Assembly (NCBI GenBank): GCA_037443845.1
Contig: JBBINO010000003.1
Coordinates: 12,489-76,488, forward strand
Length of the DNA: 64,000 nucleotides
Origin: Acidobacteriota bacterium
GTDB lineage: Bacteria; Acidobacteriota; UBA4820; DSQY01
Reading direction: 5' to 3'
Shown here in pieces: positions 1-25,045 of the stretch (positions are counted from its first letter, which is position 1; each line of letters opens with the position of its first letter). A program made the position numbers and the translations under genes. The notes under the pieces are model-generated. The model was given only the letters and a program-made list of their open reading frames with translations, had not been told where the DNA came from and searched no databases.

Positions 1-546
1 GCCGGTCGAGCCGTGCGGGTTATGGCAAGAGGTGCAGTTCATCTTGCCTTCCCTCATCGGCATGTGGCCGGAGCGGAAAAGCTGCGCCTTTCGCTGAAGG
101 TGGCAGGAGGTGCAAAGCTCGAACTCGGGCTTTCTCAAAAGAGCCTTCGGAACCGCGCCCTTGGGGTGCGGATCGTGGCAGGTGACGCAGGCGAGCTTGC
201 GGCTGTCGTGCGTCGAGCCTATCCACTGGGACTGCATCCCCTTGTTGTGGCACTTCAGGCAGACGGCGGATGACTCGGAGGGAGTCAAATTCTCGAATAC
301 CCGAATCTTGGTCTTGTCCCCGCCTCCGTCCACGTGCGCCTGGCCCGGGCCATGGCAACCCTCGCACCCGAGCGCGCTCTGGGCATGCGGAGTGGCGGCG
401 AACGCCTTGACCTGGTCCTCGTGGCATGTGCCGCAAGTCTGCGTGCCGACCATGCCGGAGGGCTCGTCAGCGAGCGCCGGCCTGGGCGCGGCAAAGCAGA
501 CGAAGGCGGCCGCCGCGGCCAGCAGAATCCATGCTCTCTTTCCCAT
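1..546 (-). CDS. Multiheme cytochrome c, N-terminal part; gene continues past the window start
   Basis: A reverse-strand frame that is not in the ORF track because its stop lies outside the window. It translates from ATG at 546 as MGKRAWILLAAAAAFVCFAAPRPALA..., a signal peptide. At least six CxxCH heme-binding motifs follow (CGTCH, CEGCH, CLKCH, CVTCH, CTSCH x2). A strong RBS, AAAGGAGG, sits 7 nt upstream of the ATG. Confidence 0.75.
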   Translation of the reverse strand, partial: MGKRAWILLAAAAAFVCFAAPRPALADEPSGMVGTQTCGTCHEDQVKAFAATPHAQSALGCEGCHGPGQAHVDGGGDKTKIRVFENLTPSESSAVCLKCHNKGMQSQWIGSTHDSRKLACVTCHDPHPKGAVPKALLRKPEFELCTSCHLQRKAQLFRSGHMPMREGKMNCTSCHNPHGSTG

Positions 547-797
547 GCAAAGCCTCCTTTAAGTTACCTTAACAGACAAACCTTCCCTGGCTGCGACCAC
601 AAAATGGCTCGCAGTACTCCCGTACGCCGGGTATTATAAAATGCTCGTCCAGGCAATTACCCATGCCGGCATACACTTTAATTGTAGCGGGGCTTTTCGC
701 CCACATAGCCAGCTAACATGCTAATATTTCAAGATAATACCAATGCGTCAATATTTGTCATTATCTTTAGCATCACCTTAACCATCCTCCAAAAGCA

Positions 798-826
798 TAG
801 CGCCGGCCTTTAACAAGACCGGCGCA
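798..826 (-). terminator. Putative intrinsic terminator hairpin downstream of the BNR-repeat gene
   Basis: Minus-strand GCGCCGG-(12 nt loop)-CCGGCGC, 7-bp GC stem, followed by TATGCTTTTGG. It lies 25 nt after the stop of the 854..4054 CDS. The loop is long and the U-tract weak. Confidence 0.3.
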
Positions 827-853
827 CAAGATGCTAAAGCCGGCAAAGCAAAG

Positions 854-3800
854 CTACTGGCACTGTGTCTGGTCGTCCTGCTGCGTGTACGCGGAACAAC
901 CGGCGACGTTTTCCCAGCCGGTGAAGTTACGATCGTATCCCGAGCTGTCCTTTCCGAATGAGGCGACGATTGCGGGCGAGGATGTGCCGTCGGACGCTCC
1001 GGTGATCACGAACCAGCTATTGTCAGGAATGGCCAATCCGTTTGCAGTTCCGCTGTTGCCAACCTGGCATTGGCCACCAGTGATTGTGGAGTAATTGCCG
1101 ATGTTTCCCCAGTAGACGTTGTTCTGAACGTTGGTACAAGCCGTCGGATAAGTCACGTCCACCGCGCTGCCGTTCTTCGCGGCCGACATCGTGTTCTTGA
1201 CGGGGTAGGGCAGGAAGCCGCCCGAGGAAGGCAGCCTGATCGCGTAAGTTCCACGCCCGTATGTAAACGCCGCCAGCGTGGTTGGGTTGTATGGGTTTGC
1301 AGACGGTCCTCTGTCAACGGTCAGGTGCTCGATGATGGTGGTGGGCAGGCCGTAATCGTAGAGGTACCAGACGGGGGGCTGCGCATTAATGTTGTCGGTG
1401 TAGTAGAAGCCGAAATCGGTGCCGACAAACGCCTGCGCGATGTTCCAGGGGTTGATGACGATCGATTCGGCCGGGACGTTCGGGAGGTTGCCGGTCTTAT
1501 TGGTCCAGCTCCACGTCCCCGCGTTGTTGACGCAGACGAAAACGTGGCCGGGTGTTGTGGAGGTGTTCTGGTCAAAACCGCCGACGGCGGCGTAGACGCG
1601 GCTCGTCGTGGTGGGGTCGAAAGCGACGCCGAGGATCGCCCGCTTGGGAAGCACGGCGTTGCTCTGCGTCAGGTTCGTCCACGTAGCGGAGGTATTGACC
1701 GTGCAGGCGAAGCTGGAGGTGTTGGCCGCGGTCTTGGTACAGTTTGTTCCACTTAACACGTTGGGGGACCACCAAACGGCGCCTTGGTCAGAACCCGTCA
1801 CTGCGGCCTTGGGATCGGAACGGCCCACGTCAAGCGTAATCACGGAACCTGTGTTGGCGGTACCGTTCACCGCGAGATCCGTCGAAGAAGTTCTAGATAT
1901 TGTTCCTCCCGAGTTGACCGAGGCATAAAAATACTGAGAGGCAATGAAGAAGTTTGGGCAACTGCCAGATGCACAATTGAAGGTGTCTAACGTATAGGGA
2001 GTGCTCCAGGACTTCCTATCTCCAGAGCCGCCCCAGTTCTTACTCTGGAAAGCGCCTCCAGCTCCAGACGTGGAGCGGGATAGAGCTCCGCCGTAGTACT
2101 CGCTGAACCAGTTACCGGCCGTGAGCGTTCCCGCTATGGGGTCGAAGGCCGAGAAGAAGCCGTCCCCACCGTTGGATCGCGCCTGCCACGTGAAGTCCGA
2201 GCGGGAGCTGTCCCAGCTGGCCGTGCCGTTGTCCTGCGCCCCGGCGAAGAGGTACTGCGTCGCCGCGTTCGCGAAGTTCGCGCTGATCTGACCCGCGTAC
2301 CACTGGGTTGAATTGATGGTGTCGTTCAACTGGGTGAAACCACCGACGCTTCCGTTCCCCAAGTAGACCCCGCCATCATTTCCGACAAGGAACTGGGATG
2401 ACGTTCCGGTTCCGCTCACCCAGACGCACGCATGCTGGTCAGGATGGAGGCTCCCATAACCCGGAGATCCAGTACTGTAAACGTTACTGAGGTTGGTCTT
2501 CGTGACGCTAGTATAAGTGCTGTTGACGGTCTCCTTGTAGAGGTTGACCCTGCCGACGTAGATCGTCTTGTCGTTGCCTGGGTCGGCGGTAACGAAGAGG
2601 TCGTACCAATCCTGGTTCTCGGAGCTGTCCGCCCCGTCGATCTTGGTCCAGCTTTGTCCGCCGGTCGTCGTCACCCATGTTCCGAGCTGGTAACCGTAGT
2701 TGCCATTCGCGTCATAGGCGTACTCCACCTGGGCATAAATCGTGAGGGTGTGGGCAGCATTGCCTCGCGATGAAGTGAGCTTTATCCACCCGACCGTACC
2801 ACCGTTTGTCCCGTTGCCCGTTCCCGCCGGCCAGCCGCTGTTGAGCAACGTGAAATCAGTCGGGATACCCGAGTCGGGTATCGTGCACCTGTAAACACCA
2901 TTGTTTCCATTGTAGCTCTGTGAGATATATCCCACAGCAATGTAGGCAGTCGTTGGGTTCGTCGTGGGATCCAAAACAATGCCACTAATTCTGTTGATGC
3001 TCTTGATCGTTCCCGACGTCGGGTCGGTCGGCTTGGCCCCGAAAGGAACGCGCGTCCAGGTCTGGCCACCATCGTGAGAAATGTACAGATCGAAGCGGGT
3101 GCCGACAAGGACGTTCTGATTGTTGTTGGGGTCAACCTTGACAAAACCGGTGTTCTGGCTTCCCCACATAGGCGTGGCTGGAGCGTAGGGGCAGAAAACG
3201 TTTGTGGCGTATTGCGCCCAAGTAGCCCCTCCGTCGGTCGACTTGAGGATGCCTTCGCCGAATTGGTCGCTCGCATCGAAGTCGCCCGTCCCCACGTAAA
3301 CCGTGTCGGGGTTCGTCGGGTCTATCTCTATCGCTCCTACCGCCTGTGTCACATAGGGAGTGTTGTCCCAGACGGAAGTCCAGGTCGTACCGCTGGTACA
3401 GCAGTTGGTCGTGACCCAGAATCCGCCTGAAGCCCCTCCGGCGAAAACCTTGATGGAGCCGGGGGTGTTCGCGGTGCGCGGGTCAACGGCAATAGCGTTG
3501 AAACGCCCCGTAACATTTCCGTACTTGTAGCCGGAATACTGCGTGGTCATGTCAATCGGTTTAGGTCCCAATTTGACCCAGTTGCCAGTCGGCGTGACAG
3601 AGAGCGTGTCGGCCAGCGGCCCTCGAAGCAGGCCATCTTGCGCGAACGGCCAGGGTTCCGCCCTGGGCACCTTCTTCTCGACCCATTTCGCGGCATCGGT
3701 AAAAGGGTGGCTGGGGATTTTGCCCGTGGGATACGAGAGAAGGTGCCATCGCCATGCGGTCGAACCTGCAACGACTTCTGAATCGCTATCCCCGCCAGGC

Positions 3801-4054
3801 AGAGGAAGATACCGTCTCTCCTCACTTTCAGATTTTTCCTTGGGCTCGCGATCGCGTCCGGCGTGCTGTTTTGCCGCCGCGGCGGCGTCCGCCTTCGGAA
3901 GGCGGGAGTCCAGCCGCTTGTTGCTCTTTGGCTGGATGGCCGCGCCAACGCAGAGCGCCACCGCCAAGCAGGCGGCCAGCCCCAAGATAAAGTATCTGCG
4001 CAGTTTCTTTCCGGAAGGGGAAAGGTGGTTTGTATCTTGCCTCTCTTGATTCAT
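854..4054 (-). CDS. Large secreted BNR/Asp-box repeat protein, beta-propeller, sialidase/glycoside-hydrolase-like or sortilin-like fold
   Basis: Multiple Asp-box motifs of SxDxGxTW type: STDGGATW, SHDGGQTW, TTGGQSW, GNDGGVY. Start chosen at ATG 4054 (MNQERQDTNHLSPSGKKLRRYFILGLAACLAVALCVGAAI), which has GGAGAG 6 nt upstream and gives a classic n-region plus hydrophobic signal/anchor. The ORF track's longest ORF starts at 4156. Confidence 0.7.
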   Translation of the reverse strand: MNQERQDTNHLSPSGKKLRRYFILGLAACLAVALCVGAAIQPKSNKRLDSRLPKADAAAAAKQHAGRDREPKEKSESEERRYLPLPGGDSDSEVVAGSTAWRWHLLSYPTGKIPSHPFTDAAKWVEKKVPRAEPWPFAQDGLLRGPLADTLSVTPTGNWVKLGPKPIDMTTQYSGYKYGNVTGRFNAIAVDPRTANTPGSIKVFAGGASGGFWVTTNCCTSGTTWTSVWDNTPYVTQAVGAIEIDPTNPDTVYVGTGDFDASDQFGEGILKSTDGGATWAQYATNVFCPYAPATPMWGSQNTGFVKVDPNNNQNVLVGTRFDLYISHDGGQTWTRVPFGAKPTDPTSGTIKSINRISGIVLDPTTNPTTAYIAVGYISQSYNGNNGVYRCTIPDSGIPTDFTLLNSGWPAGTGNGTNGGTVGWIKLTSSRGNAAHTLTIYAQVEYAYDANGNYGYQLGTWVTTTGGQSWTKIDGADSSENQDWYDLFVTADPGNDKTIYVGRVNLYKETVNSTYTSVTKTNLSNVYSTGSPGYGSLHPDQHACVWVSGTGTSSQFLVGNDGGVYLGNGSVGGFTQLNDTINSTQWYAGQISANFANAATQYLFAGAQDNGTASWDSSRSDFTWQARSNGGDGFFSAFDPIAGTLTAGNWFSEYYGGALSRSTSGAGGAFQSKNWGGSGDRKSWSTPYTLDTFNCASGSCPNFFIASQYFYASVNSGGTISRTSSTDLAVNGTANTGSVITLDVGRSDPKAAVTGSDQGAVWWSPNVLSGTNCTKTAANTSSFACTVNTSATWTNLTQSNAVLPKRAILGVAFDPTTTSRVYAAVGGFDQNTSTTPGHVFVCVNNAGTWSWTNKTGNLPNVPAESIVINPWNIAQAFVGTDFGFYYTDNINAQPPVWYLYDYGLPTTIIEHLTVDRGPSANPYNPTTLAAFTYGRGTYAIRLPSSGGFLPYPVKNTMSAAKNGSAVDVTYPTACTNVQNNVYWGNIGNYSTITGGQCQVGNSGTANGLAIPDNSWFVITGASDGTSSPAIVASFGKDSSGYDRNFTGWENVAGCSAYTQQDDQTQCQ

Positions 4055-4174
4055 GTCGCTCTCCATCGGCCGCTTGAAAGGTTTTGCCGGACGGGAGGAG
4101 TACTCCCGTCCGCGCGGCGCATCCTGCATTATGCCATTTATTGCAGATAAATGCACGTGGGCATGGAGCCCGAT

Positions 4175-5275
4175 TTAACGAGGGACTCCTTCCGCTGCAG
4201 GCGCTTGATCCCCGCGCCGTCTTGAGCCTGGCCCCGCACCGACGGTACGGCCCACCGCCCTTATTCTGGCGACAACGGAGACGGCGGCTGCCTCTCCGTC
4301 CTCCTGCGAAGCGGCCTTGCCCGGATAGATTTCATAGAGGGCTCGATATTGCCATGGCGTCAACTCAGGCATGACGACGTTGGCCCCACAGCGAAGTGCC
4401 CTCTCGTAGCCTTCTCGCCCGTCGAGCGTCGCGATCGCCGTGGTCGCGGGAATGTTCGCTTCCGGGCAGGCGAGGCGGGCCAGCGCCAGCATCTTCAGCG
4501 CCATCAACTCGGTGGCTGGCACCTGCGCGGGACTTTGCGCCCGTACATTTTGCCCCAGCGCCGTCCCGGGGTGTGGAATGAAGGGGCCGATGCCGATCAT
4601 GTCCAGATCGAGCCTCCGAAAGAGCGCGACGTCGTCCGCGAGGCTCTCGTAACGCTGGCCGGGAAGCCCAACCATCACGCCGCTTCCGGTTTCGTAGTCG
4701 AGGCGCTTCAGTCTTCCCAGAAGCGCCACGCGGCCCGGCTCGCCCGCGGCCAGCGGCGGATGGATGCGAGCGTAGAGCCTCTCGTCCGACGTCTCGAAGC
4801 GGAGAAGGTAGCGGTCCGCTCCGGCGGCCCTCCACGCCGCGAGGTCTCGCTCGGGCCTCTCGCCCAAGCTGAGGGTCACGGCGAGCCCGGTTTCCCCCTT
4901 GATCGAGCGCACGACTTCGGAGACCAAAAGAGCGGTCAGGCCATAGTCCTCGCCCGATTGCAGAACGACCGTGCCGAAGCCGAGCGATTTTGCCCGGCGC
5001 GCGCACTCCAATATCTCTCCGGCATTCATCCTGTACCTGGGCAAAACGGAGTTGTCGGCGTTTATGCCGCAGTAGGCGCAACGGCGGAGGCAGTGATTGG
5101 AAATTTCGACGAGGCCGCGCAGGTGTACGTCATCCCCTACACGCTGGCGGCGCAAATCGTCGGCCAGTTTCCAAAGAACATTCAGGCGGCCTTCGTCCTC
5201 CTCGCGAAGCCAGTCGGTTATCCGCGCGCTCGTTAAGAAAAGTTCACGATCCATGCGAGTTGGCGGCTGGTGCAT
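4175..5275 (-). CDS. hydE: [FeFe]-hydrogenase maturase HydE, radical SAM of the biotin-synthase-like family
   Basis: CLRRCAYCG radical-SAM CxxxCxxC motif. The read runs through a recalled Thermotoga-type HydE sequence, with GLVEISNHC, TVVLQSGED, GVMVGLPGQ, DMIGIGPFIPHPGT, NIPATTA and RCGANVVMP. Start ambiguous: 5275 (MHQPP, RBS AGAGGGG) or 5254 (MDRELF). Confidence 0.85.
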   Translation of the reverse strand: MHQPPTRMDRELFLTSARITDWLREEDEGRLNVLWKLADDLRRQRVGDDVHLRGLVEISNHCLRRCAYCGINADNSVLPRYRMNAGEILECARRAKSLGFGTVVLQSGEDYGLTALLVSEVVRSIKGETGLAVTLSLGERPERDLAAWRAAGADRYLLRFETSDERLYARIHPPLAAGEPGRVALLGRLKRLDYETGSGVMVGLPGQRYESLADDVALFRRLDLDMIGIGPFIPHPGTALGQNVRAQSPAQVPATELMALKMLALARLACPEANIPATTAIATLDGREGYERALRCGANVVMPELTPWQYRALYEIYPGKAASQEDGEAAAVSVVARIRAVGRTVGAGPGSRRRGDQAPAAEGVPR

Positions 5276-6515
5276 CGCCGCCCCTCTTCGCGGCGGCCAC
5301 GCGGCATTCATCAAGCGCGAGAGGAAAAGGCTTCAAGGCCCGCTCTAAAATGCCCAGGCTCTGGGCAATGGCAAGCCCGTAGTTCGTGACCGGGACGCCC
5401 TGCGTCCTGCACCGGGAGATGCGCGAAAGCATCTCGCGCCTGTTGCCCATGCAGTTGCCGCAATGGACGACCAGGGCGTACGAGGACAACTCCTCTGGGA
5501 AATCGTGGCCGCGTGAATGGTCGAAGGCGAGCTTGGCTCCCACGCGTTTCTGGAGCCACTTCGGAATCTTGACCGTTCCGATGTCGTCCTCGATGGGATG
5601 GTGGGTGCAAGCCTCGGCGATAAGCACCCGGTCCCCGCTCTTCAAGTCGTCTATAGCAAGAGCGCCCCTGACTTGTTCCACCAGGTCGCCTTGAAACCGC
5701 GCCATTAATATCGAGAACGACGTCATTGGAACTTCTTGGGGTGTCTCGCGGGCGACCGCTTCAAACGCCTGGGAATCGGTCACGACGAGCGCCGGCGGTT
5801 TCTTGAGGGTCTCGAGGGCGCCGCGAAGCCCCTTCTCCGTGACGACGACGCAGCCCGCCTCGCCGTCCAGGAGATCCCGGATGGTCTGGACTTGAGGCAG
5901 TATGAGCCGGCCTTTGGGTGCCTCCTTGTCCACGGGAACGACCAGGATGGCCAGCTTACCGGGCCCGACCAAGTCCGAAGCGATCACCTTGTCGGGCAGG
6001 AGTCCTTGAGAAGCCACGCCGAGTATCGCGAGGCGCACCGCTTCGGCCCCACCGGCACGGTTGGCCTGCGATTGGATCACGCGGGCGCCGCTCGATTCCA
6101 GCCTGGCCAGAAGCTGGGGCGCCGGCGCCCCCAGGTCGCGCTTGTTGAAAACGACGACATGTGGGATCGCCCGCTCTGCGAAGGCCTTTACGAGAGCCTC
6201 TTCGAAACCTCCCCACTTACCGGCCTCGGCGACGAGCACGGCCAGGTCCGTCCTGTCGAGGACCATGTTCGTTTTGCGGACCCGCTCCTTCCCGAGCGCC
6301 CCTTCGTCGTCAACGCCGGCCGTGTCAATGAAGAGGACGGGCCCGAAAGGAAGAAGCTCCATGGGCTTCTCGACCGGGTCGGTCGTCGTCCCGGCCGTCT
6401 CCGACACTATGGAAACCTCCTGGCCCGTGACGGCGTTGAGTATGCTCGATTTGCCTACGTTTCTCCGCCCGAAGATTCCAACGTGGAGGCGGAAGCTTTT
6501 AGGCGCCGGCTGCAT
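5244..6515 (-). CDS. hydF: [FeFe]-hydrogenase maturation GTPase HydF
   Basis: N-terminal GTPase P-loop GRRNVGKSS, DTAG and NKRD motifs. C-terminal Fe-S binding CTHH ... HCGNC signature of HydF. Confidence 0.85.
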   Translation of the reverse strand: MQPAPKSFRLHVGIFGRRNVGKSSILNAVTGQEVSIVSETAGTTTDPVEKPMELLPFGPVLFIDTAGVDDEGALGKERVRKTNMVLDRTDLAVLVAEAGKWGGFEEALVKAFAERAIPHVVVFNKRDLGAPAPQLLARLESSGARVIQSQANRAGGAEAVRLAILGVASQGLLPDKVIASDLVGPGKLAILVVPVDKEAPKGRLILPQVQTIRDLLDGEAGCVVVTEKGLRGALETLKKPPALVVTDSQAFEAVARETPQEVPMTSFSILMARFQGDLVEQVRGALAIDDLKSGDRVLIAEACTHHPIEDDIGTVKIPKWLQKRVGAKLAFDHSRGHDFPEELSSYALVVHCGNCMGNRREMLSRISRCRTQGVPVTNYGLAIAQSLGILERALKPFPLALDECRVAAAKRGGDAPAANSHGS

Positions 6516-6548
6516 GGGTGCTCCAGATGATCTTTCGCCAAGTTTTGG

Positions 6549-7946
6549 TCAGCAGTAAACGTCCCTCTTGCCGTCACGAACCATGGCGAGCATTCTTTCC
6601 GTCTTCGCCCGTAGGACGTCGTCCATCTTGGCCAGCGAGCTAGCGATGACGGATTCGCCTTGGCCGCGCGTCTCGGGCGACGCGTAATCAATGAGATACT
6701 CCATGAAGGTCGAGAGCGCGTTCGGCGAGCAGTGGGACTTGATTTCTCCAGGTTTGGCAAGGTCCATGAAGTCCGCGCCGGTGCGGCCCAGCCTGTAACA
6801 GGCCGTGCAGAACGACGGCACGTAGCCGAGCGCAGCGACGTCCCTTATCACTTCGTCCAAGGGCCTGTGGTCGCCCAGGCAGAATTGAGCTTCGTCCTCT
6901 TTCTCGCTGGAAGTGTAGCCGCCAGGGTTGGTGCGGCTGCCGGCTGATATCTGGGAGACGCCCAAGGCAAAAGTCTCCCGCCGCATCCTCGCCGTTTCCC
7001 TCGTGGACATGATGATTCCCGTGTACGGCACGGCCAGCCTTAGAATCGCGACTATCTTTCTAAAGTCAACGTCGGAAACTGGCTGGGGCGGGTGGCTCGC
7101 CATCTGCGACCCGACGGCCGGTTCGAGCCGCGGGACGCTTATGGTGTGGGGGCCGACGCCGAACTTTGCCTCGAGGTGGCTTATGTGCTGCATCAGCGCG
7201 AGGATTTCGAACCTCCAGTCGCAAAGGCCGAAGAGCACGCCTATCCCCACGTCGTCAATGCCGGCTTCCATCGCGCGATCCATCGCCGTGACGCGCCATT
7301 CGTAATCGGTCTTCCTGCCTTTGAGGTGGACCTTCTTGTAGGTCTCGTGGTGGTAGGTTTCCTGGAAGAGCTGGTAGGTTCCTATCTTCGCCGCCTTGAG
7401 TTCCATGAACTCCTCGACGGGCAGTGGGGCGACGTTGACGTTGACCCGCCGAATCTCCCCATTACCGCTTTTGGTGGCGTAGATCGTCTCGATTGACTTC
7501 AGCACGTAGGAGAAGCCTTCGTTCGGATAGGACTCGCCGGCCACCAGCAGGACCCTCTTATGGCCTTGCTCCACGAGATTTTTTATTTCGGCCGCGACCT
7601 CGCCCTGGTTCAGCGCGCGTCTCTTGACCTCGGCGTTGCGGTTGCGGAAGGCACAGTAGAGGCACTCGTTCGCGCAGAGGTTGGATATATAGAGCGGCGC
7701 AAAGAGAACCAGCCTGTTCCCGTAAATCGTCTCCTTGACCTCCGACGCGGCCTTGAACAATTCCCCCAGCAATTCGGGATCGGGGACATTCATGAGCGGA
7801 GCCACCTCGATGGGCGAGAGGCCATGGAGCTCCCGCGCCTTGGCGAGGATATCCCTCACCAGGGAGGCGCTGTGCCTTTGAGACGCTGCTATCGTTTCGA
7901 AAATCGGCGCTTCATCTATGATGACGTCGCGCCTCGTGGTAGTCAT
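6549..7946 (-). CDS. hydG: [FeFe]-hydrogenase maturase HydG, radical SAM tyrosine lyase of the ThiH-like family
   Basis: CANECLYC radical-SAM motif, ThiH/HydG-like core. C-terminal extra Cys cluster (CTACYRLGRTG ... HCSPN) typical of HydG. 465 aa. Confidence 0.9.
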   Translation of the reverse strand: MTTTRRDVIIDEAPIFETIAASQRHSASLVRDILAKARELHGLSPIEVAPLMNVPDPELLGELFKAASEVKETIYGNRLVLFAPLYISNLCANECLYCAFRNRNAEVKRRALNQGEVAAEIKNLVEQGHKRVLLVAGESYPNEGFSYVLKSIETIYATKSGNGEIRRVNVNVAPLPVEEFMELKAAKIGTYQLFQETYHHETYKKVHLKGRKTDYEWRVTAMDRAMEAGIDDVGIGVLFGLCDWRFEILALMQHISHLEAKFGVGPHTISVPRLEPAVGSQMASHPPQPVSDVDFRKIVAILRLAVPYTGIIMSTRETARMRRETFALGVSQISAGSRTNPGGYTSSEKEDEAQFCLGDHRPLDEVIRDVAALGYVPSFCTACYRLGRTGADFMDLAKPGEIKSHCSPNALSTFMEYLIDYASPETRGQGESVIASSLAKMDDVLRAKTERMLAMVRDGKRDVYC

Positions 7947-7961
7947 CGCTTGAACCTCCTC

Positions 7962-9269
7962 TCAGGCCAAGGACGCCGGAAGAGGCTGAGGGATTTCCAC
8001 TGTGAACTTCGCCCACGCTCCTTCCACCGACTCGGCCCAGATGCGGCCGCCGTGTAGCTGGACGGCATGCCAGCAGTTGTAGAGCCCGACTCCCGTTCCG
8101 CGCTGTTTCATCAGTTCAGCCTTTCTAAGCCTTGAAAAGCGCCTGAAGAGGTCACCTTTTTGGCTGTCCGGGAAGCCCGGCCCCTCGTTGAAAACCCAAA
8201 ACCTGAGCGCCGCCTCCGAGCCCTCGACGCCAAGTACGATCCTCCCGCCCTCCTTGCCGTACTTCGCGGCATTGGCCAGCAGGTTCGTCACGACGATCGT
8301 CATGAGGCCCGGGTCGCACTGGACTTCCGCTGGAGCCTCGCCTTCCCTTTCAAGGGTCATTCCCCTCTCTTCGATCTGGGGCTTGGCCAGTTCCACGGCA
8401 AGCGATACGACCTCTTTTTCCATCCCGACGTGCTGAAGCGCCAGGAATTTCAAATCGCCGCTCTCGATGCGCGCCAGATCGAGATAGTCGCGCGTAAGGC
8501 CGAGCAGGTACTCGGCCTTGCGCACCATCTTGCCCACCATCTCTTCCTGCTTGGCGGAAAGTTCTCCGAGGTAGCCTTCCTCCATCACGCGTCCCTCCGA
8601 GATGATCGAGGCGAGGGGGTTTTTCAATTCATGCGCCACGAAGCCCAGCATCTGCGTGTAGGCCCTTGTCGTCGCTTCGAGCTGCTCTATCCTCCACGCC
8701 TTTTCCACGGCCTGGCCGAGCCTTTCGGCCATTCTAAGGTGAAGCGTGACTTCGCGGTCCGAGTAGGCGTTCGGGAACCTCGAACTGCGGAAAAGGAAAC
8801 CGAGCGGCCTTCCGTTCACTACGAGGGGGCAGGTCATGCTGGAGCGCACCCCCTCGCGCAAAAGCATCCGCGTCGTCTCGCTGTGAGGGTGGGCCAGCGC
8901 GTACGTTTCCAGATCGCCGATGATGCGCGGCTCGCCGGTCTTGAGAACGCGCCCCAGGCTGGTGGCTTCCACGTCGGCGCTATACCCTTTGTTCAGGTAC
9001 AAGGGCGAGTACGAGGCGAGCGCGACGTGGGCGGCCGCCCTGCGCCCGCTCTCTTCCAAGAGTGCAAGCCCGATGCGGTCGCACGGCATGATTCCGCGGG
9101 TCTCGCTGAAGACGAAACCGAGAATCTGCTCGATGGAATCGCCCGCGGCCACCTGCGAGTTTATCTTGTCGAGAATGACCCGCGCGCCCTGCTTAAGCCT
9201 GGCGTCGAGGTCACCCGGCCGCGGGAAATCGCCAGCCGCGATCTTTTTTCGGTCGTCCCTGTCCGCCAT
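7962..9269 (-). CDS. Cytoplasmic sensor histidine kinase with an N-terminal GAF domain (GAF-HisKA-HATPase_c)
   Basis: H-box FVAHELKNPLASI. N/G boxes VVTNLLANAAKYG ... GTGVGLY. GAF-like N-terminal 200 aa with no TM segment. Start set at ATG 9269 (MADRDDRKK, GGAGG 11 nt upstream). The ORF-track start 9563 would overlap hydA and encodes a low-complexity Arg-rich artefact. Confidence 0.8.
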   Translation of the reverse strand: MADRDDRKKIAAGDFPRPGDLDARLKQGARVILDKINSQVAAGDSIEQILGFVFSETRGIMPCDRIGLALLEESGRRAAAHVALASYSPLYLNKGYSADVEATSLGRVLKTGEPRIIGDLETYALAHPHSETTRMLLREGVRSSMTCPLVVNGRPLGFLFRSSRFPNAYSDREVTLHLRMAERLGQAVEKAWRIEQLEATTRAYTQMLGFVAHELKNPLASIISEGRVMEEGYLGELSAKQEEMVGKMVRKAEYLLGLTRDYLDLARIESGDLKFLALQHVGMEKEVVSLAVELAKPQIEERGMTLEREGEAPAEVQCDPGLMTIVVTNLLANAAKYGKEGGRIVLGVEGSEAALRFWVFNEGPGFPDSQKGDLFRRFSRLRKAELMKQRGTGVGLYNCWHAVQLHGGRIWAESVEGAWAKFTVEIPQPLPASLA

Positions 9270-9333
9270 CGCCAAAAGCCTCCGGTCTCTCGCCGAGCGG
9301 CCCCGAGGAGCGGCACGCGCTCCAGATGCCGCG

Positions 9334-11253
9334 TTATAAAATGTACTTCCCTCTTGCAGTGTAGCACGTGTGAAGCAACTTGTGGCTTTGGTGCCCGCAC
9401 GGCCCGTCGGTGAGGAAGTTCTCGTAGAGGTGGGCCACCGCCGGGTTCTCGTATGACTTGCGCACCTGGTAGGCGGCGTCCTCCGCATAGATCGCCTTCG
9501 CCCGCGCGGCTCTGATCTCGGGGCTCGTCGGAATGGGCTGGCCCCCGCCTCCGAGACAACCACCGGGGCAGGCCATGAATTCGATGAAGTGGCACTCGCT
9601 GAATTTCCCTCCGGCCTTGATGTTGTCGAGAACCCGTTTCGCGTTGGCCGTGCCGTGGGCCACCGCCACCTTGAGGGTCGCCCCCTTCAGCCATTTCCAG
9701 TCCTTGAAGTGCTTGTCCAGAATGGGAGGAACTGGGCCCACGTCCTTTATGGGAAGCTCGGCGTACCTTATTCCCTCGAACCCGCGGACCGGCACGATGT
9801 CGGCGTGGTCAAACAGCTTTTCCACTTTGATGCCGCAGACGAGCTCAATCACCGTCCTCAACGCCGATTCCATGACGCCGCCCGTCGCGCCGAAGATAAC
9901 GCCTGAGCCGGTCGCCGTGCCGAAGGGCTCGTCAAAATCGGACTTCGGCATATTCGGGAGGTCCACGCCGGCCTCCTTTATCATGGCGGCCATCTCGCGC
10001 GTCGTCAGCCCGTAGTCAACGTCCTTGAAGCCGCTGTCGCACATCTCCGGGCGGTTGCATTCGAACTTCTTCGCCGAGCACGGCATCAAGGCCACGCTCA
10101 CGATGTCGGCCGGGTTGAGGCCGTTGAGCTTCGCGTAGTAGGTCTTGATGACGGCGCCGAACATCTGCTGGGGGCTCTTGGCGGAGGATAGGTGCGGGAT
10201 CATCTCGGGATGGAAGTGTTCCAGGTACTTGACCCACCCCGGGGAGCAAGACGTGAACTGCGGCAGCGCCACCGCCTTGTCCTTTTCCACCAGGGCCTTG
10301 TGCAGCCTCGACAGAAGCTCGGTACCCTCCTCGATTATCGTCAGGTCGGCGGTGAAGTTGGTGTCGAAAACCCTGTCGAAGCCGCAATGTCGCAGCGCGG
10401 TGTTCATCTGAAAAGTGAGCGGAGTCCCCGGCGGGCAATTGAAGCATTCGCCGATCGCCGCCCTCGGCGACGGAGCGGTCTGAATGACCACGTGCTTTCC
10501 GGGATCGTCAATCGCCGCCCAAATTTCGTCGGTCGGGTCGCTAGCCGCCAGGGCCGAGGTGGGGCACCTGTTTATGCACTGGCCGCAGTTGATGCAGACG
10601 ACGTCACCGAGGGGCTTGTCCATGAAACAGGCGATCTTCGTCTCCTGCCCCCGGTTGACGGCTTCTAGGACTCCGACCTCCTGGAGGTCTATGCACGTAC
10701 GGACGCAGCGCCGGCAGAGGATGCACTTGTTCATGTCCCTGACGACCGAATAGCTCGACTGGTCTATGGCGTACCTTGGCTTTTCCATCTTTCCGAAGCG
10801 AAACCCGTCCACGCCGTATTCGCCGGCCAGGCTTTGCAGCTCGCAGTTCCCGTTGCGCCAGCAGGTGTAGCATTCGCCGTAATGGTTCGCCAGCATGAGG
10901 TCGAGGATGTGGCGGCGCGCCTGCCTGACTTTTCGAGTGTGGGTGCTGACTTTGACAGGCTGGGTCACCGGGTAGGCGCACGAAGCCTGGAGCGTTCGCT
11001 GTCCCTCGATCTCCACGACGCAGACCCGGCAAACTCCGGCGATGCAAAGGTCGTCGTGGTTGCACAAGGTTGGGATCCTTATGTTCATCTCCTTGGCGGC
11101 TTCCAGGATGGTCGTGCCGAACGGAACCTTAGCCTCAACGCCGTCTATCGTCAAGGATACGCTGGCGCCGATTCCGTCACCGGCCGAGGCCACCGGCACC
11201 ACCTGCCGCCTCTGGCTGACCGGGGCCCGGCTTTCGAGGTTCTTGGATGTCAT
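9334..11253 (-). CDS. hydA: [FeFe]-hydrogenase catalytic subunit HydA (large, NADH-dependent/bifurcating type; N-terminal 2Fe-2S plus Fe-S domains and H-cluster domain)
   Basis: H-cluster signatures TSCSPGW (L1), MPCSAKKFE (L2), ACPGGCLGGGGQP (L3). Two ferredoxin-like 4Fe-4S motifs CILCRRCVRTC and CINCGQCINRC. N-terminal plant-type 2Fe-2S (CNHDDLCIAGVCRVC) and a His-ligated cluster (HYGECYTC). 639 aa. Confidence 0.9.
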   Translation of the reverse strand: MTSKNLESRAPVSQRRQVVPVASAGDGIGASVSLTIDGVEAKVPFGTTILEAAKEMNIRIPTLCNHDDLCIAGVCRVCVVEIEGQRTLQASCAYPVTQPVKVSTHTRKVRQARRHILDLMLANHYGECYTCWRNGNCELQSLAGEYGVDGFRFGKMEKPRYAIDQSSYSVVRDMNKCILCRRCVRTCIDLQEVGVLEAVNRGQETKIACFMDKPLGDVVCINCGQCINRCPTSALAASDPTDEIWAAIDDPGKHVVIQTAPSPRAAIGECFNCPPGTPLTFQMNTALRHCGFDRVFDTNFTADLTIIEEGTELLSRLHKALVEKDKAVALPQFTSCSPGWVKYLEHFHPEMIPHLSSAKSPQQMFGAVIKTYYAKLNGLNPADIVSVALMPCSAKKFECNRPEMCDSGFKDVDYGLTTREMAAMIKEAGVDLPNMPKSDFDEPFGTATGSGVIFGATGGVMESALRTVIELVCGIKVEKLFDHADIVPVRGFEGIRYAELPIKDVGPVPPILDKHFKDWKWLKGATLKVAVAHGTANAKRVLDNIKAGGKFSECHFIEFMACPGGCLGGGGQPIPTSPEIRAARAKAIYAEDAAYQVRKSYENPAVAHLYENFLTDGPCGHQSHKLLHTCYTARGKYIL

Positions 11254-12449
11254 TGTCCCCTCCCTTCAAAACACCGCTCCCTCCCGAGCACTTCGTCCTT
11301 GAAGTTCGCGGCGATGGAGATGAAGGCGTTGGGCGCCGACTGCCCGAGGCCGCACTTCGAGGCCAGTTGCATCGTTTCGCCCAAGGCGAGGAGCTCCTTG
11401 AGGTAGGTCATGGAGCACTTTCCGCTTTCGAGCTTTTCTATTCCTTCCAGCAGGACCTTCGTGCCGTACCGGCAAGGCGTGCATTGGCCGCACGACTCCT
11501 CGGCGAAGAATTCCATGAAGTTCTTCGCGGCCAGAAGCATGTCTCGCTCTTTTCCGAAGACGATAACCGAACCGCCCGTCGGGATGTCCTCGAAGGCGAG
11601 CGCCCTGCTGAACTGCGCGGCCGGGACGCAATGGCCGGAGGCGCCGCCCACCTGCACCGCCTTCGCCTCCTCGCCCCCCACCTCCTTCAAAAGCTGGGCG
11701 ATGGTTATGCCCATGGGCAGCTCGTAAACCCCGGGCCGCTCGCAGTCGCCGGAGACGGAAAATAGCTTCGAGCCGGTGGATTTGCCGGTCCCGATTTTCT
11801 TGAACCACTCGGCGCCTTCCGACATGACGCGCGCCGCGAGCGCCAGCGTCTCGACGTTGTTCACTATCGTCGGGCAGCCCAGGTAGCCGGTGTTGACCGG
11901 GAAGGGCGGCCTGTTCCTGGGCTCGCCCCTGTGGCCCTCGAGCGATTCGATCAGTGCCGTCTCCTCGCCGCAGACGTAGGCGCCAGAGCCGAGCCTGATC
12001 TCGATGTCGAATGAAAAATCCTTTTTCCCCGAGACGGCTTCTCCCAGCAACCTTCCGCGGCGCCTCGCGTTCAACGTCTCTTCGAGGCCGGGCAGGAGAT
12101 ACCCGTATTCACCACGCAGGTACATGATTCCGGACCCGGCGCCGATCGCGTAACCGGCTATCGTCATTCCTTCGAACACAAGATCCGGATAAGAGGCGAG
12201 AAGGACTCTGTCCTTGAAGGTCCCAGGCTCGCCTTCGTCGGCGTTGCAGACGACAAATTTTCTGTTCCCCTGCGCGGCGGCGGCTATGTTCCATTTCATG
12301 CCGGTGAGGAAACCCGCGCCGCCCCGCCCCTTCAGCCCGGATGCCCGAACCTCGGAAATCACGTCGCCGCGCGTCATCGCCAAAGCCCTTGCCAGCCCGG
12401 CCTCGGGCATAAAATCACCAAACAGAATCGGTCCCTTGAGGGCGCTCAT
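11250..12449 (-). CDS. NuoF-like flavoprotein subunit of the hydrogenase (HydB/beta, NADH-binding 51-kDa family), minimal form
   Basis: NuoF hallmarks GLKGRGGAGF (FMN/NADH site) and ESCGQCTPCRYG (N3 4Fe-4S). Start set at ATG 12449 (MSALKGPILF), with AGGAGG 7 nt upstream, immediately after the TGA of the upstream NuoE-like gene (TGACATG). About 400 aa, so it lacks the extra N- and C-terminal Fe-S domains of Thermotoga-type HydB. Confidence 0.85.
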   Translation of the reverse strand: MSALKGPILFGDFMPEAGLARALAMTRGDVISEVRASGLKGRGGAGFLTGMKWNIAAAAQGNRKFVVCNADEGEPGTFKDRVLLASYPDLVFEGMTIAGYAIGAGSGIMYLRGEYGYLLPGLEETLNARRRGRLLGEAVSGKKDFSFDIEIRLGSGAYVCGEETALIESLEGHRGEPRNRPPFPVNTGYLGCPTIVNNVETLALAARVMSEGAEWFKKIGTGKSTGSKLFSVSGDCERPGVYELPMGITIAQLLKEVGGEEAKAVQVGGASGHCVPAAQFSRALAFEDIPTGGSVIVFGKERDMLLAAKNFMEFFAEESCGQCTPCRYGTKVLLEGIEKLESGKCSMTYLKELLALGETMQLASKCGLGQSAPNAFISIAANFKDEVLGRERCFEGRGQ

Positions 12450-12450
12450 G

Positions 12451-12963
12451 TCAGTGTCCCTCCTTCTGAGAGGCGTAAACGGAGAAGCTGCGGCGGCACG
12501 CTTCCAAAATGTCATGGACTTTCTCCGCCGTCACTTTCGAGAAGACCTGGTCGTTTACAAGGAGCGCCGGCCCCTGGTCGCACATTCCCAGGCAGTTGGC
12601 CCATTCGAGGGTGAACTTGCCGTCGGCAGTGGTCTGCCCGAATTTGACGCCCAGCTCGTTTTCAAGCTGGCGCGCCACCCTCTCCTTGCCCTGCATGTCG
12701 CAGGAGATCGTGCGGCAGAGCCGTATCACGAACTGCCCCTGGCGCCTGGCCTTGAGGAAGGCGTAGAAGGTCACCACGCTGTAAACTTCGACGGGGTGGA
12801 TGTTCAAAAGGCTCGCGACCTCCTGCATCGCGTAGTCGGAAATGTGATGGTACCTTGACTGGACCGTTTGTAGAATCGGCAGGAGCGCCGAGCGGTCCCG
12901 GCCGTAGCGGCCGGCTAGCGCCACGATCTCACCCGAAAGCCTTTCCTGATCGGCAATAAACAT
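12451..12963 (-). CDS. NuoE-like thioredoxin-fold 2Fe-2S subunit of the hydrogenase (HydC/gamma, 24-kDa family)
   Basis: Cys spacing of the NuoE family (CRTISCDMQG ... CLGMCDQGP). 170 aa. Translationally coupled to the upstream and downstream genes. Confidence 0.85.
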   Translation of the reverse strand: MFIADQERLSGEIVALAGRYGRDRSALLPILQTVQSRYHHISDYAMQEVASLLNIHPVEVYSVVTFYAFLKARRQGQFVIRLCRTISCDMQGKERVARQLENELGVKFGQTTADGKFTLEWANCLGMCDQGPALLVNDQVFSKVTAEKVHDILEACRRSFSVYASQKEGH

Positions 12964-12964
12964 G

Positions 12965-13342
12965 TCAGCCCCCCTTCTTCAGAAGCGCGCCGGCGCGCTC
13001 CAAGAGCTTGGCCGGGGCGATCGGCTTCTCCTGAAAATCGTCCACGGGCACGACGTCCTCATGGCGGCCGAAGGAAAGACCCGTGACGCTCCCCAGGCTA
13101 GTAAGCATCAGGATCGGCTTTTTGAATCCGCGCCTTCTAAGCTCGCGGGCCATCGCTATACCGTCGTCCGGCTCCTCCATCATCACGTCCAGAAGGAGAA
13201 GGTCTGGCTTGAATTTCTCGGTGGCCTGGAGTCCGTCCCGCTGGTTGGACGCCGAAGACACCTTGTGTCCCGCCTTCTCGAGCACCAGCCGGATCGTTTC
13301 GGTGATGTCGGGATCGTCATCCACTACCAATATCTTCGCCAT
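12965..13342 (-). CDS. Stand-alone response-regulator receiver (CheY-like REC, no output domain), first gene of the hydrogenase operon
   Basis: MAKILVVDDDPDITE ... DLLLLDVMM ... LTSLG ... receiver-domain signature with a conserved phospho-acceptor Asp. 125 aa. RBS AAAGGAG 7 nt upstream. Its stop abuts the NuoE-like start. Confidence 0.8.
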   Translation of the reverse strand: MAKILVVDDDPDITETIRLVLEKAGHKVSSASNQRDGLQATEKFKPDLLLLDVMMEEPDDGIAMARELRRRGFKKPILMLTSLGSVTGLSFGRHEDVVPVDDFQEKPIAPAKLLERAGALLKKGG

Positions 13343-13530
13343 CAGAGGCTCCTTTCAAGCGCCCTCGCGAAAGGGCGCTCTCTGGTTTTAATCTATCTTC
13401 ACTGGTGTCAGATAGGGAGGAAATAGAGGAAGGAGAGGATTTCGCTGAGGTAATTAACCCATCACATGGGCGTTATGGCCCACAACTATCTTCGTTGCTT
13501 GTCCGCTTGAGCGCGTCTCGCCGCGCGCCG

Positions 13531-21444: not shown

Positions 21445-22368
21445 ATGATCCTTCGTTGGCCGAAATGTCTCTTGACGGTCCTGCTCCTCTGTCTGGCTTC
21501 GTTCAGCGCGAGCGCCTCGGGCGTTTTCGTCGTGCTGCGAAAGGGCGTGCAGGCTTACGACGACGCGAAGAACGGCTTCATCCAGATGGCCTACGCCAAG
21601 CAGCTCCGCGGCTTCAACCCGGCCGCCGTGGAACTTGACGGGACGGACAAGGATGACGCCGCGCTCGCGGCTTTGAAGGGGCAGGCTCCGGACCTGATTT
21701 TTGCCGTCGGCTCCTATGCGGCCAAGAAGGCAAGGCAGGCCATGCCGGACGTGGAGATCGTCTACGCCATGGTCTACTATCCGGAGGTTGACGGCCTGAC
21801 GCACGACGCCAAGATGACCGGCGTCGCCTCCCTTGGCGCGCCAAAGCTGCTTGCGCAAGTGATAAAGTCCTTGGGCAAGGGGAAGAGCATCATCGTCTTG
21901 AACCAGGCTGCCATTTCGGCTTCGGCGCTCGAAATCGCCTCGACCCTTGGCGGCGAGGGGCTTTCCGCCTCGACCTCGACCGTGCAGGGGACCGACGACC
22001 TCCCGAAGGTTCTGGACGGGATTCGGGGCCAGGCCCAGTACGTTCTTCTTCTGCCCGATCCGCTGACCCAGTCCCCGGAGTCGCTCCGCTTCATCATCTC
22101 GAAATGCGTTGACGGTGGGATGATACCGCTCGCCTATTCGGAAGGGCTGGTCTCCAACGGGGCGTTTGCCGCCGCCTATATTCCTCCCGAATCGGCGGGG
22201 TCGAAGGCGGCCGAAATCGCCTCCGAAATCCTCTCCTCGGGCAAGGCGCCGGACACGAAAGTGGTTCCGGTCACCGACGCGGCGACGGCCGTGAACAAAG
22301 GCACGGCGAGAGCCTTGAGGATCAACAAGCTGCCCAAGGAGCTCGCCTCGGGGACGATCTATGAGTGA
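21445..22368 (+). CDS. Periplasmic substrate-binding protein (ABC-type uncharacterised transport system periplasmic component, COG2984-like)
   Basis: Signal peptide MILRWPKCLLTVLLLCLASFSASASG, with RBS GAGGAGG 7 nt upstream of ATG 21445. Type-I periplasmic-binding-like fold implied by alternating hydrophobic/Gly-rich segments. Its stop overlaps the MCP start by 8 nt. Confidence 0.6.
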   Translation: MILRWPKCLLTVLLLCLASFSASASGVFVVLRKGVQAYDDAKNGFIQMAYAKQLRGFNPAAVELDGTDKDDAALAALKGQAPDLIFAVGSYAAKKARQAMPDVEIVYAMVYYPEVDGLTHDAKMTGVASLGAPKLLAQVIKSLGKGKSIIVLNQAAISASALEIASTLGGEGLSASTSTVQGTDDLPKVLDGIRGQAQYVLLLPDPLTQSPESLRFIISKCVDGGMIPLAYSEGLVSNGAFAAAYIPPESAGSKAAEIASEILSSGKAPDTKVVPVTDAATAVNKGTARALRINKLPKELASGTIYE

Positions 22369-24520: not shown

Positions 24521-24526
24521 GGCGCC

Positions 24527-25045
24527 ATGGAGAGCCTTTTCGCCGCGAGAAAACCGCAAGCCGCGCCCGACGCCGAGACCCTTTACCTCGGCTTTGTCGT
24601 CGCTGGGCAGGACTACGCCCTTCCCATCGCCTGCGTGAGAGAAATTCTCAGGGTTCCGAAAATACATGCCTTCCCAAAGGTCCCGGAGTTCGTGAAGGGA
24701 GTCATTGACCTCAGGGGGACAATCCTTCCAGTCGTGGACCTAAAGGAGAGGATCGGCCTCGGAACGGTTGACAAGGCAAGGGGCCGGGTGATCGTCCTCG
24801 TCCCCAACCATCAACCGATGGGGCTTCTAGTGGACAAGGCGGTCGAAGTTTTCCCCTGTTCGGAAGCGCTTCTCAAGCCGAAGCCGGAGTTGCTGCAGAA
24901 GGCCCCGGTTCCCTTTCTCGCCGGCATAATTTCAAGGGAGGGGACCCTTTACTACGCGCTCGACCCGAAGTTGATCCTTACGCCTCGCGAGTTCGAGATT
25001 CTGGAAACGCACCGATGGGTCGTGCCTGATGAAAAGCAGAAGTGA
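24527..25045 (+). CDS. cheW: Chemotaxis coupling protein CheW
   Basis: CheW-like domain: LYLGFVVAGQDYALPIACVREIL ... GVIDLRG ... PVVDL ... VIVL ... GLLVDKV-like. 172 aa. Confidence 0.85.
   Translation: MESLFAARKPQAAPDAETLYLGFVVAGQDYALPIACVREILRVPKIHAFPKVPEFVKGVIDLRGTILPVVDLKERIGLGTVDKARGRVIVLVPNHQPMGLLVDKAVEVFPCSEALLKPKPELLQKAPVPFLAGIISREGTLYYALDPKLILTPREFEILETHRWVVPDEKQK

Follow-up and report, generated by a model that had tools for sequence, protein, structure and literature searches.

A stand-alone receiver encoded with an [FeFe]-hydrogenase operon in several bacterial phyla, with a GAF histidine kinase as its movable companion

We have analysed a 64,000-nucleotide stretch of DNA from an Acidobacteriota bacterium (contig JBBINO010000003.1, positions 12,489 to 76,488; this whole stretch is called the window below), which carries an [FeFe]-hydrogenase operon with two signalling genes inside it, one for a stand-alone receiver (REC) and one for a histidine kinase with a GAF domain. 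Comparison with related loci reveals that REC is a near-obligatory, co-translated part of the structural operon, and that the kinase is a frequent but movable companion. The arrangement recurs in dozens of loci from several phyla, which is far beyond chance. In the window, the operon occupies positions 13342-4175 on the minus strand and consists of eight co-directional genes in the order REC-hydC-hydB-hydA-kinase-hydG-hydF-hydE, as read from the open reading frame (ORF) listing and the Pfam and NCBIfam matches (lengths in amino acids, aa):

12965..13342, minus strand: REC, stand-alone receiver, first cistron; 125 aa; Pfam Response_reg only
12451..12963, minus strand: HydC, NuoE-like [2Fe-2S] thioredoxin-like subunit; 170 aa; PF01257 (2Fe-2S_thioredx) at 2.8e-48, NuoE/HoxE-type NCBIfam matches
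11250..12449, minus strand: HydB, short NuoF-like FMN/NADH subunit; 399 aa; Pfam Complex1_51K, SLBB and NADH_4Fe-4S only
9334..11253, minus strand: HydA, M3-type [FeFe]-hydrogenase catalytic subunit; 639 aa; Pfam Fer2_4, NADH-G_4Fe-4S_3, Fer4, Fe_hyd_lg_C and Fe_hyd_SSU
7962..9269, minus strand: soluble histidine kinase; 435 aa; Pfam GAF, HisKA and HATPase_c
6549..7946, minus strand: HydG, radical-SAM H-cluster maturase; 465 aa; TIGR03955, 538 bits, 1.7e-161
5244..6515, minus strand: HydF, GTPase scaffold maturase; 423 aa; TIGR03918, 534 bits, 1.5e-160; HydF_dimer and HydF_tetramer
4175..5254, minus strand: HydE, radical-SAM maturase; TIGR03956, 287 bits, 2.4e-85

The stop codon of REC and the start codon of hydC are 1 nucleotide (nt) apart, reading TGAcATG at the junction. 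The same sequence, again with a single base between stop and start, joins hydC to hydB, and hydB and hydA overlap by ATGA, so that translation is coupled across the first four cistrons. Further downstream, the gaps are 64 nt between hydA and the kinase gene, 15 nt between the kinase gene and hydG, and 33 nt between hydG and hydF, while hydF and hydE overlap. The initial annotation had described eight co-directional and tightly spaced genes for the structural subunits and all three maturases, with a stand-alone receiver in front whose stop abuts the NuoE-like start, and with a soluble GAF-HisKA-HATPase kinase between hydA and hydG. All of this is confirmed by Pfam, NCBIfam and the junction sequences, and the idea of a complete unit is further backed by the full synteny that also recurs in several phyla. 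Neither REC nor the kinase contains a hydrophobic segment in the hydropathy analysis (maximum KD19 ~1.0), so both signalling proteins should be soluble. As for the maturation set, the matches to TIGR03956, TIGR03918 and TIGR03955 are all above the equivalog cutoffs of NCBIfam, and the translations contain the radical-SAM CxxxCxxC motif, the C-terminal CxxCx22C motif of HydG and the CxH...HCxxC motif of HydF.

The recurrence of this layout was assessed from three starting points. A scan of species-representative genomes seeded with the kinase gave 79 loci, 47 of which were informative, with at least 6 kb on both sides. The hyd genes are adjacent to the kinase gene in 25 of these 47 loci; around the other 22 copies, none is present within 10 kb. 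The recurring order is REC-NuoE-NuoF(short)-HydA-kinase-HydG-(TM1266-like)-(aspartase)-HydF-HydE, observed in Acidobacteriota, Hydrogenedentota (with no HydE detected in that locus), Actinomycetota/Thermoleophilia and Myxococcota. Two metagenome-assembled genomes (MAGs) of Holophaga (L042, L045) have the REC-hydCBA-kinase order. In other loci the kinase gene stands directly before hydG with no hydA nearby (e.g., L003, L043), and in L010 the TM1266-like gene, aspartase, hydF and hydE come next.

The second scan, seeded with HydA and run on metagenome contigs, gave 80 hits, all at least 71% identical. The initial annotation had staked its proposal on the conservation of the pair beside orthologous hydrogenase operons, and the pair is indeed conserved there, though unevenly: REC comes first in 53 of the 59 operons whose upstream sequence is readable, and the GAF kinase follows hydA in 21 of the 65 whose downstream sequence is. 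Both sides of hydA can be read in 52 loci, of which 18 have both genes, 29 have REC only, five have neither, and none has the kinase alone. REC and hydC are no more than 21 nt apart in 75 of 77 loci. Finally, all three look-ups seeded with REC itself (Phycisphaerales, a deltaproteobacterial MAG and Krumholzibacteriia) show the order REC-NuoE-NuoF-HydA, with a NuoF-like protein of 397-403 aa.

REC is conserved in sequence as well as in position. More than 2300 homologues are found at E <= 1e-20, and the best 120, at 59-100% identity, are without exception stand-alone proteins, most of them of 122-131 aa (a few annotated up to 169 aa). The 21 orthologues that we have compared, all of ~123-130 aa, share 50-64% identity with the window REC, compared with 46-55% for the kinase. 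In its conservation, REC equals the NuoE-like subunit and exceeds the kinase. The family alignment has a mean column identity of 72% across phyla. The residues for phosphorylation are the acidic pocket D8-D10, the acceptor D52, T81 and K106-P107; among 26 aligned family members, D8-D10, D52, K106 and P107 are invariant and T81 is present in at least 90%. The phospho-acceptor should thus be read as D52 rather than D54, the residue given initially.

In the AlphaFold2 (AF2) model of REC, with a predicted local distance difference test score (pLDDT) of 86, the (βα)5 fold is seen, but the stretch from β4 (77-81) to β5 (102-105) has no predicted helix α4. Residues 82-101 form a low-confidence loop there, with pLDDT below 50 at 85-94. 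Its sequence, S-x-x-K-V-T-G-x-x-x-G-R-D-x-D-L-V-P-V-D, is nonetheless conserved, with G88, P99, V100 and D101 invariant. On this model, REC does not have the canonical α4-β5-α5 signalling face, α4 being replaced by a conserved loop. Since this usual output face is remodelled yet conserved, REC is expected to have a dedicated and conserved partner. The NCBIfam matches of REC are MtrA, YycF and RpaB, and the Foldseek matches include MicA, VicR, YycF and RpaA at 33-37% identity; by these likenesses, REC is a receiver of the OmpR/PhoB transcription-factor lineage that lost its DNA-binding domain. NCBIfam has no specific model for REC or for the GAF kinase. Many database copies of REC are named 'DNA-binding response OmpR family regulator' or 'response regulator transcription factor' despite having no DNA-binding domain. 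The earlier statement that the cluster encodes no DNA-binding output domain holds locally, as tblastn detects no other receiver, kinase or Rex homologue in the 64-kb window.

The GAF kinase belongs to a family of more than 1900 homologues with ~50% full-length identity across phyla, and the closest locus in the species-representative scan is from a Candidatus Aminicenantes MAG (90% identity). Its AF2 model has a pLDDT of 82.6, and the core is most similar to HK853. Invariant residues are the phospho-acceptor H213, N329 and N333 of the N-box, F375 and F378 of the F-box, and G391, G393 and G395 of the G2 box. The G1 box reads N361-x-G-x-G (N361 codon at window positions 8187-8189), with Asn aligned to D411 of HK853 in 85 of 85 family members, and the remainder of the ATP pocket shows no variation. 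In other GHKL ATPases, a change from Asp to Asn at G1 usually cripples ATP binding. The other kinase types found beside REC-hydCBA operons keep the G1 Asp. Within the GAF domain, C147 is near-invariant (84/85). We have rejected a pair of GAF cysteines as a redox or FeS sensor: C63 lies in a 'CDR' motif that unrelated GAF domains also have (3hcy, 5dfx) and is Phe in 6 of 85 members, so only C147 is family-specific. The orphan kinases, i.e., those away from hyd genes, were considered as a separate paralogue clade as well, and this too is rejected, as they are intermixed with hyd-linked copies in identity clustering, bar one orphan-only cluster of ~10. Nor do the orphans have a common conserved neighbour; only lineage-specific ones were found, namely an HdrA-like gene in Thermoleophilia and a 1627-aa protein in L017, L022, L033, L063 and L066.

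The slot after hydA is not reserved for the GAF kinase. In L048 and L165, the genes for Rex, the GAF kinase and a TM1266-like protein stand side by side, divergent from REC-hydCBA; rex is immediately upstream of the GAF kinase gene in L048, and the two overlap by 4 nt in L165. In L091 (10441-14643) and L101 (10221-15524), hydA is followed by a HATPase-Fer4-Fe_hyd_lg_C protein, then a Fer4-Fe_hyd_lg_C-FeS-HisKA-HATPase_c kinase, and then a second REC. Judged from its domains, this looks like a putative H2-sensing two-component branch, and the kinase is of the same kind as the 'C1, histidine kinase-linked (putative)' sensory [FeFe]-hydrogenases of HydDB (PMC5037454). L135 has a PilS-like membrane kinase in this slot. 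REC is retained where such sensory-hydrogenase or PilS-like kinases replace the GAF kinase, and it is also retained in the 29 loci with no kinase nearby. It is clear that REC is the enzyme's constant partner and that the sensor varies, the kinase being facultative and replaceable. For this reason a GAF-bound ligand, the trigger proposed in the initial annotation, is not the universal input.

Stand-alone receivers were also seen beside other hydrogenases. On an Eisenbacteria contig (L002), a stand-alone REC and a Cache kinase come after a HoxEFUYH-type [NiFe] operon (1-5986), and a long-HydB [FeFe] operon, Rex-NuoE-NuoF-HydA, on the same contig (12627-17224) is followed by another stand-alone REC. 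In the actinomycete loci L028, L044, L069 and L110, a second hydA is followed by a REC. Such receivers may be a general accessory of NAD-linked hydrogenases. In one set of metagenome loci (L107, L109, L110, L149 and L156), hydA is followed by HdrC/HdrB/HdrA-like genes, and the orphan GAF kinases of Thermoleophilia (L032, L051, L058, L080, L081) adjoin the HdrA-like gene mentioned above. This hints at a link between hydrogenase and heterodisulfide reductase under the GAF sensor.

As to the enzyme itself, HydA passes NF040763 ('NADH-dependent [FeFe] hydrogenase, group A6') in NCBIfam with 788 bits against a cutoff of 765, and the match to TIGR02512 is also above cutoff. The H-cluster motifs TSCSPGW, MPCSAKK and CPGGCLGGGGQP are invariant in an alignment of 12 orthologues; HydA thus has all the features taken here to define group A, i.e., P1 TSCxPxW, P2 MPCxAKK and P3 CPGGCxxGxGQ together with the Fe_hyd_lg_C and small-subunit domains. 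The closest solved relative is HydA1 of A. woodii (7q4v, 590 bits). In the P1 motif TSCSP, S337 stands where CpI has a second Cys (TSCCP), and this is compatible with activity because the active A. woodii HydA1 carries the identical TSCSP motif.

The HydB subunit is more telling with respect to the type of enzyme. Its alignment covers residues 148-524 of the 599-aa HydB of A. woodii and 173-554 of the 626-aa HydB of T. maritima, and the best solved match is HoxF of an NAD-reducing [NiFe] hydrogenase (5xf9). Both Pfam and the structural alignment indicate that the N-terminal [2Fe-2S] and C-terminal 2x[4Fe-4S] domains, which define a bifurcating HydB, are absent. Since these additional FeS domains are lacking, the enzyme is not of the classical bifurcating A3 type. 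The group A3 label used in the initial annotation is therefore correct in HydDB terms and functionally misleading. An enzyme of this type has been termed 'sub-type II BfuABC' and predicted as 'lacking electron bifurcating ability'; it occurs in Hydrogenedentota, Acidobacteriota, Actinomycetota and Planctomycetota, and Holophaga foetida and Thermotomaculum hydrothermale are cultured carriers (PMC11406978). The HydAB of S. aciditrophicus and Hyd1ABC of S. wolfei, whose beta subunits have fewer FeS centres, have been found biochemically to be NADH-dependent and ferredoxin-independent (PMC7311640). Based on these sequence comparisons, the trimeric HydC-HydB-HydA is probably an NADH-linked, non-bifurcating enzyme. 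In the metagenome loci L108, L119, L129, L131, L134, L141 and L143, the NuoE- and NuoF-like parts appear to be fused in one ORF of ~570 aa, and REC still precedes it.

For the function of the signalling genes, we tentatively favour a two-component pair of their own, in which REC would act through contact with another protein, the hydrogenase itself being the likeliest one, with Rex-type repression in parallel. The phosphotransfer between the window kinase and REC, the target of phospho-REC and the sensed signal are what we infer here. In this proposal, the cytoplasmic kinase would read an intracellular cue via its GAF domain, set the phosphorylation state of H213 and control the phosphorylation of D52 on the single-domain receiver. 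The receiver would then bind another protein, which is suggested by its having no output domain and, in place of the α4 effector surface, a conserved flexible loop. The partner would most probably be the hydrogenase complex encoded right behind REC, either on its NuoE/NuoF-like diaphorase side or as assembled HydABC. Phosphorylation would gate the electron flow from NADH to H2, or the assembly of the enzyme, after translation, and transcription would be set separately by a trans-acting Rex-like repressor. We prefer an enzyme-directed role because REC travels with the structural genes, apart from the regulators (as in L048 and L165), and is coupled to hydC. Rapid gating would plausibly be useful, since a non-bifurcating NADH-dependent hydrogenase runs only near equilibrium, at very low H2 (PMC7311640). 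It is possible, though rather doubtful, that REC serves the NADH-dependent [FeFe]-hydrogenase as a regulatory subunit or ligand, switched by phosphorylation, and so directly gates a redox enzyme or its assembly instead of a promoter, with interchangeable inputs (GAF, an H-cluster H2 sensor or a membrane kinase) and with a GAF kinase of perhaps unusual nucleotide chemistry.

On the other hand, several observations weigh against this proposal. Gene order alone does not separate an action on the enzyme from mere co-expression, and no fusion of REC to NuoE, NuoF or HydA was found among the best 150 family representatives, a list inflated by multi-REC proteins. Roughly half of the kinase family is not linked to hyd genes and forms no separate clade, and the invariant G1 Asn makes it conceivable from the sequence that the kinase is mainly a phosphatase or a user of another nucleotide. 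Besides, Rex-type control is found in relatives, and REC could feed into it. TGTGA-N6-TCACA palindromes (at most one mismatch), which fit the Rex consensus, occur upstream of REC in 22 of the 79 loci, where shuffled sequences would give 0.5 (maximum 3), and at least nine relatives have rex itself within the cluster or next to it, including L002, L034, L138, L151, L153, L154 and L159 besides L048 and L165. From these palindromes and rex genes it follows that transcriptional control exists in parallel. The initial annotation had placed the control after transcription, 'rather than classical transcriptional control'. The coupling of REC to hydC and its travelling with the structural genes support the former part, while the Rex-type boxes and rex genes of relatives speak against the exclusion of transcription. 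One may go further and suppose that phospho-REC itself acts on transcription indirectly, by binding a DNA-binding protein or RNA polymerase, e.g., by modulating Rex, and thus provides a second input into hyd control. The Rex/CRP-type palindromes, the rex genes (in L165 with an overlap into the GAF kinase gene, in L048 directly before that gene, and in seven other loci next to the cluster) and the descent of REC from OmpR/PhoB transcription factors are all in line with this idea. We still regard it as unlikely, because REC is encoded with the enzyme, and not with rex and the kinase gene, when the operons separate, both rex and a Rex box are missing from many loci, the window lacks a canonical Rex box and contains no rex gene in its 64 kb, and we know of no precedent for a receiver that binds Rex.

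Single-domain receivers commonly serve as phosphate shuttles or sinks, and REC could accordingly be a Spo0F-like shuttle that hands phosphate through an unlinked Hpt to a DNA-binding regulator, or else drain the kinase as a sink, with the real output elsewhere. The kinase gene is often unlinked to hyd and in some cases near other regulators (REC-HATPase_c_2 in L001, NarL-type near the Thermoleophilia copies), and a second REC follows the sensory-hydrogenase kinase in L091 and L101, as such roles would allow. However, no Hpt was found in the three annotated look-up loci with both hyd genes and the GAF kinase, the only loci screened for it, and a receiver that is the coupled first cistron in ~90% of operons, and is kept with no kinase nearby, is unexpected for a shuttle or sink, which makes this explanation quite improbable to us. 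Alternatively, the GAF protein may be mainly a ligand-regulated phosphatase or use a nucleotide other than ATP, and REC may be phosphorylated from another source, e.g., acetyl phosphate produced in fermentation or a second kinase, and then be reset by the GAF protein. The G1 Asn in all 85 members, at a position where the other kinase types beside the operon keep Asp, is in favour of this, and so are the 29 loci that keep REC with no adjacent kinase and the E214 and N/S217 kept in the H-box, which resemble the HisKA phosphatase motif. But there is no variation in the N-box, F-box and G2 box or anywhere in the ATP-lid region, which argues for a functional nucleotide pocket, and Asn can still hydrogen-bond adenine; hence there seems to be little room for this possibility. 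Lastly, it is hardly credible that REC and the kinase are unrelated hitch-hikers with no role for the hydrogenase, since their position and sequence are conserved in Acidobacteriota, Hydrogenedentota, Actinomycetota, Myxococcota, Planctomycetota, Krumholzibacteriia and other lineages.

The region upstream of REC differs between lineages. The Rex-type boxes of other lineages are mostly located from ~-110 to -250 relative to the REC start. Near the window operon, no match to the canonical Rex operator (TTGTGAA-N4-TTCACAA) with three or fewer mismatches was found, and the following candidate is present:

13446..13482, minus strand: two adjacent 16-bp palindrome-like boxes, TGGGCCATAACGCCCA and TGGGTTAATTACCTCA, ~120-140 nt upstream of the REC start; TGGG-N8-CCCA-like candidate operator

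The Acidobacteria loci L005 and L009 carry boxes of the TGGG-N8-CCCA type at -136 to -140, as does the window. Their enrichment is modest (5/79 loci, 0.6 expected, shuffle maximum 4), and they may tentatively be seen as a lineage-specific operator where relatives carry Rex-type boxes. In addition, a perfect 8-bp inverted repeat, AGCGCCCT-N6-AGGGCGCT, lies at 13358-13379, immediately 5' of the ribosome-binding site of REC (-24.5 kcal/mol in a 67-nt context). A riboswitch or leader RNA was considered and rejected, as there is no Rfam match at E up to 1 and the hairpin is not a family feature; the folding z-scores of the 5' untranslated regions across the 79 loci equal those of control segments.

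A few gene starts differ from those of the longest ORFs. The kinase starts at ATG 9269, and not at GTG 9563 of the longest ORF, which runs into hydA, because all homologues agree on this start, including a 100% identical 435-aa database protein. For HydB, the start is most likely ATG 12449, where the longest ORF would begin at 12515. The longest ORF of HydE begins at TTG 5314 and the TIGR03956 match begins at residue 21 of this long ORF, and translation probably begins at ATG 5254, which overlaps the stop of hydF, or at ATG 5275.

The upstream flank of the operon contains genes for a short-chain dehydrogenase and GlmS, which are unrelated to the module. On the other side, 18 nt downstream of hydE and on the same strand, there is an ORF of 1100 aa (854-4156), which looks secreted, with a likely N-terminal membrane or signal segment. 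It has no Pfam match and only a weak glycosylhydrolase-like match in NCBIfam, and is probably unrelated to the hydrogenase module. Searches of the 64-kb window by tblastn revealed no further homologue of REC, the kinase, Rex, the TM1266-like protein or aspartase. A chemotaxis-type cluster (HAMP-MCP, CheW) is located at 22361-25045 on the plus strand, ~9 kb upstream of the hydrogenase operon. The hyd-linked receiver is not part of this cluster, given that tblastn with REC as the query (E <= 1e-3) gave no second receiver in the window.

The control of [FeFe]-hydrogenases is understood mainly as Rex-dependent transcription, plus the sensory HydS-type proteins, which are poorly understood. In the searchable full-text literature on FeFe hydrogenases, we have found no description of this REC or of the GAF kinase. 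The term 'response regulator' is absent from the main texts of PMC11406978 and PMC7311640, 'GAF' and 'CheY' are absent from the former as well, and 'histidine kinase', where present, concerns group C. Two-component control has only been postulated for the group C sensory [FeFe] proteins (PMC5037454). That is, the enzyme and its maturases are of known kinds, and the REC/GAF-kinase pairing is the part with no description in the literature. [FeFe]-hydrogenases are responsible for H2 turnover in anoxic soils, sediments and digesters and are targets for bio-hydrogen engineering, and a receiver co-translated in ~90% of one widespread enzyme type, in many uncultured phyla, points to a conserved regulatory layer. 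If REC indeed acts on the enzyme, this would be a rare case of two-component, post-translational control of a metabolic enzyme and would offer a handle to switch H2 production. At the level of annotation, the database labels on REC proteins are either generic or, where they say 'DNA-binding', wrong.

Among known systems, the [NiFe] uptake hydrogenases are under H2-sensing two-component control by HupUV/HoxBC-HoxJ-HoxA, in which the output HoxA is an NtrC-type DNA-binding activator. These systems and group C1 have in common with the window operon, as we read it, a two-component signalling dedicated to hydrogenase, and the related loci L091 and L101 even carry a hydrogenase-domain kinase. In contrast to HoxA, however, the window receiver has no output domain, and the window sensor has a GAF domain instead of a hydrogenase domain. 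The HK853 kinase of Thermotoga maritima is alike in its core, but it has the canonical G1 Asp (D411) and a periplasmic sensor, compared with Asn and a cytoplasmic GAF domain here. RR468 is a stand-alone receiver like REC and is among the structural matches of REC, but its α4 helix is normal; to our knowledge, there is no hydrogenase linkage of the HK853-RR468 pair. The Sma0114/SdrG 'FATGUY' receivers, a likeness offered as a lead only, are also stand-alone, and their α4 segment likewise forms no stable helix. Unlike them, the window REC has no PFxFATGY motif, and its neighbouring kinase is of the HisKA type, not HWE.

Accessory genes are known for the maturases too: a TM1266-like 'putative iron-only hydrogenase system regulator' (PF21699) and aspartate ammonia-lyase accompany hydG, hydF and hydE (PMC11736057 for the ammonia-lyase). 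In relatives they stand right after the GAF kinase gene or hydG, but both are absent from the 64-kb window, and neither is a two-component protein. At the enzyme level, the three-subunit logic is common to the window enzyme and the bifurcating HydABC of A. woodii, T. maritima and Thermoanaerobacter kivui (HydDB A3), whereas the window HydB is short of ~150 N-terminal and ~75 C-terminal residues, which carry the clusters held responsible for bifurcation (PMC11406978). The sub-type II and S. aciditrophicus-type enzymes share with the window enzyme the M3-type HydA, the NuoE/NuoF-like partners and the flavoprotein with reduced FeS content (PMC7311640, PMC11406978), and the NuoE-NuoF fusion of the related metagenome loci resembles the HydB of S. 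aciditrophicus.

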